From NCBI RefSeq assembly GCF_900232105.1, contig NZ_LT934425.1, forward strand, positions 1,170,001-1,202,000: DNA of 32,000 nt, read 5' to 3'. A program made the position numbers and the translations under genes. Shown here piece by piece: positions 1,609 to 3,337 of this stretch. The first letter of the stretch is position 1. Every line of letters begins with the position of its first letter. The DNA comes from Candidatus Kuenenia stuttgartensis. Lineage in GTDB: Bacteria; Planctomycetota; Brocadiia; Brocadiales; Brocadiaceae. The notes under the pieces are model-generated. The model did no database searches and was not told the origin of the DNA. It saw only the letters and a list, made by a program, of their open reading frames with translations.

Positions 1609-1628
1609 GGTTCAGGTTACAAACCTGA
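1609..1628. repeat. REP-like hairpin family 1, copy interrupted by the IS110-family element (remainder ACCC at 3231-3234)
   Basis: GGTTCAGGTTacaAACCTGA ends at the IS junction. The missing ACCCgcg follows the other IS end at 3231-3237. Confidence 0.75.
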
Positions 1629-1730
1629 TAATCATATAGAAGGCACCTCCGAGCGCACTCTTCATGGTAAAATGGAGGATACCGTGAAAGGCGATTGTTA
1701 AATAATAACAAAGTAAGGAGGGAGCGAGCA

Positions 1731-2747
1731 ATGGGATATTTCGTAGGAATAGATTTACATGGTGATAATAATTATATTGGAATACTCGATGAGGAGGATC
1801 GGAAGGTATTCAAGAGGAGAAACCGTAATGACATCAATGAAATAAAGCGCGTATTAGAGCCATACAAAAAAGAAATAAAGGGTATAGTAGTAGAATCGAC
1901 CTTTAACTGGTACTGGATAGTGGATGGTCTGATGGAGGCAGGCTATCAGGTACACCTGGCAAATACATCGGCAATGCAGCAGTATGAGGGATTAAAGTAC
2001 ATTGACGACACGAGGGATTCGTTTTGGTTGGCAAAGATGTTACGGTTAAAGATATTACCAGAGGGATATATTTATCCCAAAGAGACGCGGTCAGTGAGGG
2101 ATTTACTGAGGAAGCGGATGATGTTGGTACAACAAAGGACAGCGCATATATTGAGTATGCAAACGATGGTAAACCGTAACAAAGGAGTACCGATAAGCGG
2201 TGATACGATAAAGAAGCTGAGTAACGAAGAGGTAATGGGGATGTTCAGCGACGTGCATTTGACCATGTCAGCACAGTGCGATCACGAGGTAATAGAGGTA
2301 TTAAATAAGCAGATATACAAGATAGAGAAAGCGGTATTAAAGGAGGTGAAGCTAAAGAAGCCGTATAAGAAATTGCTCAAGGTGCCTGGGATAGGCGAAA
2401 TCCTGGCAATGACGATAATGCTGGAGACTGGGAACATAGAGCGATTTAGTGATGTGGGGATGTATTCATCTTATTGCAGATGCGTATCGGCAAAAAAATT
2501 ATCGAATGGTAAGAGCAAAGGGAAAGGAAACCGTAAGAACGGGAATAAATACCTTGCGTGGGCGTATGTGGAGGCAGCGCATTTTCACGTAAGATTTTGC
2601 GAAAAGGGAAGGAAATGGCATCAGAGGAAGGCGTCAAAGAGCCATGTAGTTCTGGCAACGAAAGCCTTGAGCAATAAGCTGGCCAGGGCATGTTATTACA
2701 TAATAAAGGAGCAAGTAAACTACGACGAGAAAAAAATGTTTGGGTAG
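1731..2747 (+). CDS. IS110-family DEDD transposase/recombinase (338 aa)
   Basis: ATG at 1731 is preceded by AAGGAGG; the ORF-track start at 1695 is an upstream TTG extension. Motifs: GIDLH, VVESTFNWYW, YIDDTRDSFWLA (DEDD), and C-terminal VPGIGEILAMTIMLE...SNGKSKGKGNRKNGNKYL. Confidence 0.9.
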   Translation: MGYFVGIDLHGDNNYIGILDEEDRKVFKRRNRNDINEIKRVLEPYKKEIKGIVVESTFNWYWIVDGLMEAGYQVHLANTSAMQQYEGLKYIDDTRDSFWLAKMLRLKILPEGYIYPKETRSVRDLLRKRMMLVQQRTAHILSMQTMVNRNKGVPISGDTIKKLSNEEVMGMFSDVHLTMSAQCDHEVIEVLNKQIYKIEKAVLKEVKLKKPYKKLLKVPGIGEILAMTIMLETGNIERFSDVGMYSSYCRCVSAKKLSNGKSKGKGNRKNGNKYLAWAYVEAAHFHVRFCEKGRKWHQRKASKSHVVLATKALSNKLARACYYIIKEQVNYDEKKMFG

Positions 2748-2754
2748 CAAGCAG

Positions 2755-2835
2755 ATTAGGTGGTGCAAGGAACCGGTTGCGGGTTAGGTAACCAATCCAT
2801 GAAACCTGATTGGAAGTTGTTCCACCTTTTATTAT
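2755..2835 (+). ncRNA. Candidate bridge/seek RNA target-binding module of the IS1111-type element (extent uncertain; could extend further into 2748-3230)
   Basis: Nested stems GGTGG/CCACC and GGAAC/GTTCC, plus a CCAATC/GATTGG hairpin. Unpaired GCGGGTT (2779-2785) and AAACCTGA (2802-2809) match opposite strands of the rebuilt target on either side of the TGA core. Followed by TTTTATT. No covariance-model test was possible. Confidence 0.35.
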
Positions 2836-3337
2836 GAGTTGTGCCGGTAAAGGAATCGGCGAAAAAGAATATTCCATTCTGATCTGCCCATACCATGAGC
2901 CGTGAGGTTTTGGCCGTAGAGCCGAATATTCTGTGAATAACGATTGGACACTGGTATGGAACCGATGGTTTTCTGGGACAGAAGATAAGTCAGGGGCGGT
3001 GAGAAAGTCTTTCACAAAGCCTTGATCCCGATGGGTGAATGGTGCGGATGAGAACGATACCAAAACAATTGCGAAATACCACGGGCGTAGATAAACGTGA
3101 ACGGTATAGTCATTTTCGTAAACAGCAGTAAGAGCGATTCCGTACTTGGAGGGGTATTCAAAACGTGAAAATGTAGATATTTTTGCGACCGGAGATATTT
3201 TGTCCTTGACAAAAGCCTTCTAATGAGTGAACCCGCGAATGTAGTTTTCAGTACCATTACGTTCCCAAACAGCTACTTCACTATGTTCAGTACAAGGTTT
3301 GAGAACGAGTTGTGCTTCGGTAGTTTAATATATTACA

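Follow-up and report, generated by a model that had tools for sequence, protein, structure and literature searches.

An IS110-family insertion sequence of IS1111-like architecture in Candidatus Kuenenia stuttgartensis, with a predicted guide RNA that matches its target in a dispersed hairpin repeat

The genome of Candidatus Kuenenia stuttgartensis is a single 4.41 Mb contig (C1), from which we analysed a window of 32,000 nt (C1:1170001-1202000). Near the left edge of this window lies a 1,602 bp insertion sequence (IS), which interrupts a short hairpin repeat and encodes one recombinase followed by a long non-coding region, in which we describe a putative guide RNA. The features are as follows, in window positions, where a slash within a target sequence marks the point of insertion:

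1453-1628: left dispersed repeat, about 175 bp
1609-1628, forward strand: left half of the split target, made up of the arm GGTTCAGGTT (1609-1618), the loop ACA (1619-1621), AACC (1622-1625) and the core TGA (1626-1628)
1621-1628: part of the left target predicted to be read by a guide, AAACCTGA
1629-3230, forward strand: insertion sequence, 1,602 bp, delimited by identical genomic copies with the same ends, which are ambiguous by the shared 3 nt TGA
1629-1644, forward strand: left end (LE), with the terminal TAATCATA (1629-1636) and the left subterminal inverted repeat TAGAAGGC (1637-1644)
1731-2747, forward strand: transposase/recombinase gene, 338 amino acids (aa), with Pfam, NCBIfam and PDB matches; ribosome-binding site AAGGAGGGAG at 1715-1724
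2758-2827, forward strand: putative target-binding stem-loop of a seekRNA/bridge RNA; outer stem 2758-2768 with 2817-2827, closing CCGG (2773-2776) with UUGG (2810-2813)
2779-2785: T guide, GCGGGTT, reverse complement of A/ACCCGC (the last core base plus the right half-target)
2802-2809: B guide, in DNA AAACCTGA, identical by k-mer match to the left half-target plus TGA core
2958-3042, forward strand: candidate donor-binding loop, with conserved blocks in all relatives examined
3206-3230, forward strand: right end (RE), with TTGACA (3206-3211), the right subterminal repeat GCCTTCTA (3215-3222), ATGAG (3223-3227) and the core TGA (3228-3230)
3231-3236, forward strand: right half of the target, ACCCGC, predicted to be read by the T guide; outer part of the right hairpin arm plus flank
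3231-3348: right dispersed repeat, about 118 bp
18289-18302, reverse strand: unoccupied exact 14 nt target AAACCTGAACCCGC, inside an intact hairpin at 18288-18316

Five full-length copies at 100% identity are present in the genome, the window copy and four others (3596797+, 2782475+, 581297- and 543969-), and the identity between copies ends exactly at 1629 and 3230. Another transposon interrupts each of two more copies, and at C1:4189662-4191559 (L006, L010) the full element is followed by a repeat of its last 299 bp. At all eight insertion sites the element ends are identical and the flanks read ...CAAACCTGA/IS/ACC(C/T)..., in the window with ACCCGCG at 3231-3237 outside the right end. A first-pass annotation, made from the letters of the window, had placed a 1,602 bp IS110-family element at 1629-3230, and Pfam, NCBIfam NF033542 and the identical copies bear this out; its junction and end strings lie where it put them, aside from a leading 'ttt' that really occupies 1606-1608 (a 3 nt offset), and the differing termini that it had held would count against it were seen in no copy. 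The TGA that it read as a shared core at both junctions, leaving the ends ambiguous by 3 nt, recurs in all copies. Insertion is simple, with a common TGA core and no target duplication, and removing the element on paper yields sequences that are intact elsewhere. As the five full copies are 100% identical and the eight independent sites all read CAAACCTGA/ACC, the element appears to have been active recently; the other genomes of the genus that we searched held only fragments, at 77-81% identity. Its 8 bp subterminal inverted repeats (TAGAAGGC and GCCTTCTA), also picked out in the first pass, are real and co-vary in relatives (for example TAGCCGCC with GGCGGCTA), and its non-coding sequence measures 102 bp on the LE side, 5' of the gene, and 483 bp on the RE side, 3' of the gene.

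Several copies depart from the simple form. The extra segment at 4189662 corresponds to element positions 1304-1602 (window 2932-3230), contains the candidate donor loop and the RE end, and is joined to the full copy at a shared GTGA (…AATGAGTG/TGAATAACG…), an arrangement reminiscent of the modular circles reported for ISPpu9. The copy at C1:581297-582898 (L004) has four added bases, GTGA, repeating the last four of RE, between RE and its ACCCAC flank, and in a Scalindua relative (67% aa identity, L019:2930-2971) the last 21 bp of RE are tandemly duplicated (...caaaaaccttctaatgggtga caaaaaccttctaatgggtga/ctacaa). The two split copies are interrupted at ACTGG(G/T), with a 5-6 bp duplication, by an insert ending TGCTAAGCCCC...GACGTAGCA; the 5.2 kb insert at C1:2322851-2328035 (L154) encodes a DDE_Tnp_1 transposase, an rve/Mu-transposase-C protein and an AAA_22 ATPase. 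The halves of the second split copy (4208884-4210210 and 3906216-3906496) now lie ~300 kb apart, and a rearrangement therefore followed the interruption.

Deleting 1629-3230 leaves the 24-mer GGTTCAGGTTACAAACCTGAACCC, which occurs exactly and intact at eight other places in the genome, three of them (996072, 1357413 and 1363868) flanked on either side by >40 nt that agree with the window copy, in agreement with the earlier proposal that excision rebuilds a hairpin. That proposal equated the rebuilt hairpin with the one at 18288-18316, which is indeed an intact member of the same family but reads cgcGGGTTCAGGTTttgtAACCTGAACCC, with a 4 nt loop and in the opposite orientation. Empty sites, which the first-pass annotation suggested looking for, are thus plentiful within the genome itself: beside the eight rebuilt hairpins there are 26 unoccupied exact copies of the 14-mer AAACCTGAACCCGC, where 0.018 would be expected by chance, and none falls within a long open reading frame. 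In the eight sites that have been used, the left half-target is always perfect, whilst +4 and +6 of the right half can vary (ACCCAC, ACCTGT). Across the whole genome the hairpin family numbers 56 copies at no more than two mismatches per arm, only four of which fall in frames of 150 codons or more (stop to stop), though such frames cover 77% of the genome. Being a short, imperfect palindrome, extragenic and in many copies, the family has the marks of the repetitive extragenic palindrome (REP) class; a check for REP-associated tyrosine transposases (RAYTs) gave 22 PF01797 matches in the genome, and of the 15 strongest, those compared with the hairpins, only one (broken, 93330-93668) lies <200 bp from a hairpin half-site.

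The hairpin sits at the joint of the two longer dispersed repeats, each present in 30-50 copies at 76-94% identity. The ~175 bp repeat lies outside the element, is missing beside two full copies and has dozens of IS-free occurrences. The first-pass annotation had considered that hairpin halves lying in longer repeats would undermine its reconstruction; they do lie in such repeats, but because the uninterrupted copies of the ~175 bp and ~118 bp repeats contain an intact hairpin, the reconstruction is strengthened. At two sites (543969 and 2322047) the left hairpin arm is replaced by other sequence (cattgGGTTACAAACCTGA/ACC), and since the element inserted there too, the hairpin is not a requirement for insertion and appears not to be the recognition feature; the 14-mer putatively read by the element's own RNA is common to all sites, and it is this that is required. 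That 14-mer is the 3' arm plus flank of a dispersed extragenic hairpin, and the element therefore accumulates in those hairpins. The left repeat also contains, in many copies and ~31 nt before the hairpin, the 8-mer of the element's own subterminal repeat, TAGAAGGC; the site reads ctaaTAGAAGGCtggattg at 996072 and aatagaatgcggg in the window copy (1571-1586), and may be a coincidence.

What the first pass missed is the guide RNA, the central feature of the mechanism. According to Siddiquee et al. (2024, PMC11187229), the seekRNAs of IS1111-type elements have a T guide followed by a B guide, and the two overlap where insertion occurs. In the loop at 2758-2827 the B guide, as AAACCUGA, would pair with the bottom strand of the left half-target and TGA core, and the T guide, as GCGGGUU, with the top strand of the right half-target A/ACCCGC; jointly they specify AAACCTGA/ACCCGC. 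Both lie in an internal loop closed by an invariant CC(G/A)(G/A)...UUGG pairing and an 11 bp outer stem. The element would in this way have, as expected of the IS110 family, a non-coding end with structured RNA guides to both target strands.

To follow guide and target through the family, 80 related loci were fetched, and their ends, flanks and homologous RNA segments extracted. In the closest relative by transposase (L018, 90% aa identity, from a Brocadiaceae metagenome-assembled genome), a C-to-T change in the guide (AAACTTGA) recurs in the target (...AACTTGA at the insertion site), and between L019 and L020 a one-base guide difference (TTGTAGT vs. CTGTAGT) is matched by the flank (CTACAA vs. 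CTACAG). Over 21 non-redundant relatives the B-guide match ran past the core for 3.76 nt with cognate targets and 0.77 nt with non-cognate ones, T-guide matches scored 5.57 against 4.16, and the cognate-level result was reached in none of 10,000 permutations (p < 1e-4). Compensatory changes were found by RNAalifold in 12 of 18 predicted pairs of the alignment (A1), including the 11 bp outer stem.

A second loop, at 2958-3042, is probably the donor-binding loop, holding the element's joined ends, and its conserved block repeats the target-loop scaffold GGAACC ... TGA-NTGG. Within it, ATGGGTGA (3031-3038) corresponds to the RE end ATGAGTGA but for a single G:T wobble, and ATGG comes next. This candidate RE guide is identical to the RE end in most relatives and co-varies with it in L057, L063 (GGATGA) and L041 (GGGCGA), covariation that is lacking in L029 and L036. 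A left-donor guide is tentatively placed at GATGGTT (2964-2970, after GGAACC), for which comparison with AATCAT gives weak support. RNAalifold returned no covarying pairs for the donor-loop alignment (A2) because its variable stems align poorly; two of these stems co-vary by eye.

The gene product contains the transposase domains PF01548 (E = 1.1e-14) and PF02371 (E = 2.4e-11), each passing the Pfam cut-off, and scores 171 bits against NCBIfam NF033542, 'IS110 family RNA-guided transposase' (cut-off 140). Its C-terminal domain aligns confidently with the recombinases of ISCro4 (PDB 9t56) and IS621 (8wt6), and its N-terminal domain marginally, with ISCro4 only. Among 15 relatives, D8, E55 and one Asp in the motif K-x-x-D-D-x-x-D (residues ~89-96) are invariant whilst the fourth acidic position of the DEDD tetrad varies, and all retain the Ser of an invariant S-N motif ~13 residues before G-N-K-Y-L. 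The sequence at this Ser reads C-R-C-V-x-x-x-x-x-S-N; the following residue is N, not G, and the G-L-x-P part is absent.

The first-pass annotation had called the element IS1111-type, a group defined by subterminal inverted repeats of 7-17 bp (PMC11187229; PMC11208160). Its architecture agrees, as the repeats are 8 bp long, the longer non-coding region with the guide RNA lies 3' of the transposase gene (483 bp vs. 102 bp) and the T guide is 5' of the B guide (2779-2785 before 2802-2809). Its transposase does not: in a BLASTP comparison with IS4321 of R751, the single IS1111-group protein used, only the C-terminal 145 aa (residues 191-331) aligned, at 24% identity, the N-terminal domain remained unaligned, and neither full-length kinship nor the GL-P----S(t)G motif was found. 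A tblastn search of 72,556 plasmids (E at most 1e-3) gave no enterobacterial (IS5075/IS4321-type) plasmids among the matches listed, 45 of 199 records, which is weak support. The nearest named relative is instead ISGsu4 (47% identity to a PGAP 'ISGsu4 family' protein), which belongs to ISfinder group IS110 and has its predicted bridge RNA in RE (Durrant et al. 2024, Supplementary Table 5). The clade of the window element (motif GNRKNGNKYL) is present in the clustering of Durrant et al., where it bears no ISfinder name, and is missing from their ISfinder table, and literature searches for a published name of the element gave nothing usable. We would therefore class it as an IS110-family element that is IS1111-like in architecture only.

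With RE and LE joined by a single TGA, TTGACA comes to stand 17 nt upstream of GATAAT, matching the consensus at 11 of 12 positions (hexamer matching). The predicted junction reads ...CCTTCTAATGAGTGATAATCATATAG..., or as a circle or tandem ...GCCTTCTAATGAGTGATAATCATATAGAAGGC.... The -10 hexamer is composed of GA from the core (1627-1628) and TAAT from LE (1629-1632), and as the core is also present at the left junction the integrated copy keeps it but is without the -35. Scanning the integrated left end revealed no site reaching 8 of 12 matches and nothing promoter-like 5' of the gene, in line with the first-pass prediction that a promoter would be complete only when RE is joined to LE. Sites as good as the junction occur ~28 times per Mb per strand, which gives a chance of ~8e-4 for one spanning the junction; in silico, the predicted junction promoter is real. 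In a panel of 23 elements (the window element and 22 relatives), 15 have TTGAC at a distance of 23-26 nt from the end of RE. Searching metagenome contigs with a looser RE-LE junction pattern returned 43, most of them unrelated chance matches; real junctions were confined to L128, L130, L147, L152 and L137, with L124 and L131 ambiguous. The first four, from relatives with 45-51% aa identity, are one IS unit long with terminal overlaps of 55 or 127 bp, and their junctions read RE-TGA-LE with matching subterminal repeats and TTGACA, TTGACG or TTTACT placed 17 or 18 nt before GATAAT. Contigs of one unit need junction-crossing reads, and therefore circles or head-to-tail tandems exist for these relatives. 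Junction promoters are active in ISEc11 and ISEc21 (PMC11187229) and in ISPpu10, whose circles make a strong hybrid promoter (PMC12288879).

The 5' leader between the left end and the gene (window 1645-1726; relatives L019, L021 and L023) carries GCACCTCC just past the left subterminal repeat, complementary in several relatives to the ribosome-binding region (GGAGGTGC); in the window CCTCC (1646-1650) can pair with GGAGG (1674-1678). Such pairing may act as a translational block on read-through transcripts.

We consider it very probable that the insertion sequence at 1629-3230 belongs to the IS110 family, has an IS1111-like architecture and recent activity, is guided by its RNA to the 14-mer and possesses a promoter on the circle. 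This reading is built on the observed copies, ends, empty sites, guide-target match and covariation, promoter geometry and one-unit circular contigs of relatives. The mechanism is drawn by homology: the DEDD/Ser recombinase (1731-2747) would act with a structured RNA from the 483 bp region 3' of its gene, one loop of which (2758-2827) would present the two guides and a second (about 2958-3042) probably the element's joined ends. The element would leave as a circle, its RE and LE having a single TGA in common, and from a strong promoter at the circle junction the recombinase gene and, downstream, the guide RNA would be expressed. Insertion would then exchange strands at the common TGA and duplicate nothing, which would explain why deletion on paper restores the hairpin. 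Binding of the RNA by the protein, circle formation by the window element and activity of the promoter would follow from what has been published on ISEc11, ISPa11, IS621 and ISPpu10.

Several results weigh against this reading. A scan of 1400-3500 with Rfam 15 (E at most 1) found no family matching the RNA, the single-sequence fold of 2748-2900 is unremarkable (z = -1.56), and the support for the RNA structure comes from the alignment alone. The donor loop is only partly supported, and its left-donor guide least. Neither the assembly nor the metagenome contigs contain the exact circle junction or tandem that the first-pass annotation and we predict for this element. Five panel elements would have a 15 nt spacer, eight are without TTGAC at the usual distance, and the minicircles of ISPpu9 form no hybrid promoter (PMC12288879).

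These last points, and the fact that the promoter was identified by hexamer matching only, would suit an explanation in which the junction match is due to chance or is non-essential and the recombinase is expressed by read-through or from a native promoter, as reported for ISPpu9. We find this unlikely, given 11 of 12 matches with a 17 nt spacer at the low chance calculated above, an integrated copy with no promoter-like site 5' of the gene, a -35 kept at that distance by most relatives and by the four circular contigs, and the active junction promoters of ISEc11, ISEc21 and ISPpu10.

Folded DNA is recognised by IS200/IS605 elements and in integron attC recombination, and the hairpin here could likewise be recognised as a structure, a folded single strand or cruciform, in which case the matches in the non-coding tail would be incidental. 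Most occupied and unoccupied sites do lie in the palindromic repeat, and the published IS1111-type targets (REP, attC) are described as 'potentially folded' (PMC11187229). Insertion at 543969 and 2322047 without a left arm argues otherwise, as does guide-target covariation in relatives whose targets are not hairpins, and RNA guidance has been shown experimentally for the family (PMC11187229, PMC11208160); we regard recognition of the folded hairpin as very improbable. Less credible still is that the hairpin halves and their long flanking repeats are not a target at all, but part of a larger composite mobile unit carrying the IS. The flanks do belong to repeats of 30-50 copies, but these are often IS-free and then have an intact hairpin, the full copies at 3596797 and 543969 have different flanks, and the 100% identity between copies stops exactly at the element's ends.

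In IS621 and ISCro4, both of the IS110 group, the RNA reportedly lies in the left end, 5' of the gene, the subterminal repeats are said to be 2-3 bp long and the core of IS621 to be the dinucleotide CT, unlike the window element with its downstream RNA, 8 bp repeats and TGA core. It resembles these bridge recombinases (Durrant 2024; Hiraizumi 2024 and 2026) in its DEDD plus Ser recombinase fold family and in a predicted two-loop RNA reading target and donor on both strands around a common core. With ISEc11, ISPa11 and ISKpn4 it shares a transposase of ~338 aa, subterminal inverted repeats, a long 3' non-coding region, a putative short structured RNA with the T guide 5' of the B guide and overlap at the insertion point, the lack of target duplication and a predicted promoter made by the abutted ends, and like ISPa11 it targets a REP hairpin. 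Deleting about 205 bp of the 3' non-coding region of ISEc11 (bp 1170-1374) abolished circle formation (PMC11187229); the 483 bp region of the window element is much longer than in these elements. From the IS1111 group it differs by its distant transposase, with the Ser in S-N rather than S/T-G. The motifs VE..F.WYW and SYCR.V...S..K.KG and a guide RNA predicted in the right end are held in common with ISGsu4-type elements, unlike which its immediate clade has no ISfinder name. Like ISPpu9 and ISPpu10 of Pseudomonas putida, it is multi-copy and occupies a fixed position in repetitive extragenic palindromes (PMC12288879; Tobes and Pareja 2006, as cited in PMC11208160), but in another host phylum and another repeat family, and ISPpu9 is without a junction promoter.

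Junction promoters and REP/attC targeting have been published for the IS110/IS1111 family (PMC11187229; PMC11208160; PMC12288879), as have the shared core and the 3' seekRNA, and the window element adds a new example, leaving knowledge of how IS110/IS1111 elements work unchanged. It does provide a natural data set for RNA-guided transposition, with eight insertions and 26 free exact targets in one genome, tolerated mismatches confined to the distal right half-site, and relatives in which guide and target change together. The seekRNA/bridge-RNA picture is extended to a lineage without an ISfinder-named member in the 2024 surveys. This lineage, present here in an anammox-type planctomycete, joins IS1111 hallmarks to a transposase like that of ISGsu4 and to a 3' RNA region of unusual length. 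For annotation, it explains the split hairpin repeats and identifies the ~175 bp repeat 5' of the gene as target context, not guide RNA.

The hairpins also carry a second kind of trace, a 49 bp perfect palindrome built from the final 33 bp of the element in two inverted copies, which have an internal hairpin, TTTTGTC-CTT/AAG-GACAAAA, in common. Three are in the genome (C1:469146-469194, 3547650-3547698 and 3577001-3577049; loci L012-L017) and an identical copy is present in another genus of the same family (G005:C58:13384-13432, L107:135-183); across all fetched loci no RE-RE palindromes were found beyond these four. Each lies exactly between the GGGT and ACCC of the target hairpin, the inner hairpin (GGTT-loop-AACC) is gone, and both junctions are of the RE/right-target type. 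That the palindromes are footprints of a reaction undescribed for bridge recombinases seems to us doubtful. One possible origin is insertion into both target arms, followed by collapse of the resulting 3.2 kb palindrome at the internal hairpin TTTTGTC-CTT-GACAAAA; an abortive RE-by-RE event or a fold-back copying error are also possible. Insertion into both arms or an abortive RE-by-RE event, if true, would mean that a recurrent and recognisable scar is imposed by palindromic targets.

Another mobile element adjoins the same repeat. Window positions 2-1470 encode a Tn5-like IS4-family transposase (PF14706, PF02281 and PF01609) of a multi-copy element, whose copies match the window up to about 1407-1470, and whose right end adjoins a copy of the target hairpin truncated in its left arm (GGTTTGCAACCTGAACCC, 1453-1470). 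As cttaacttaatgacatt precedes truncated hairpins at several other sites, this second element may favour the hairpin repeat too.

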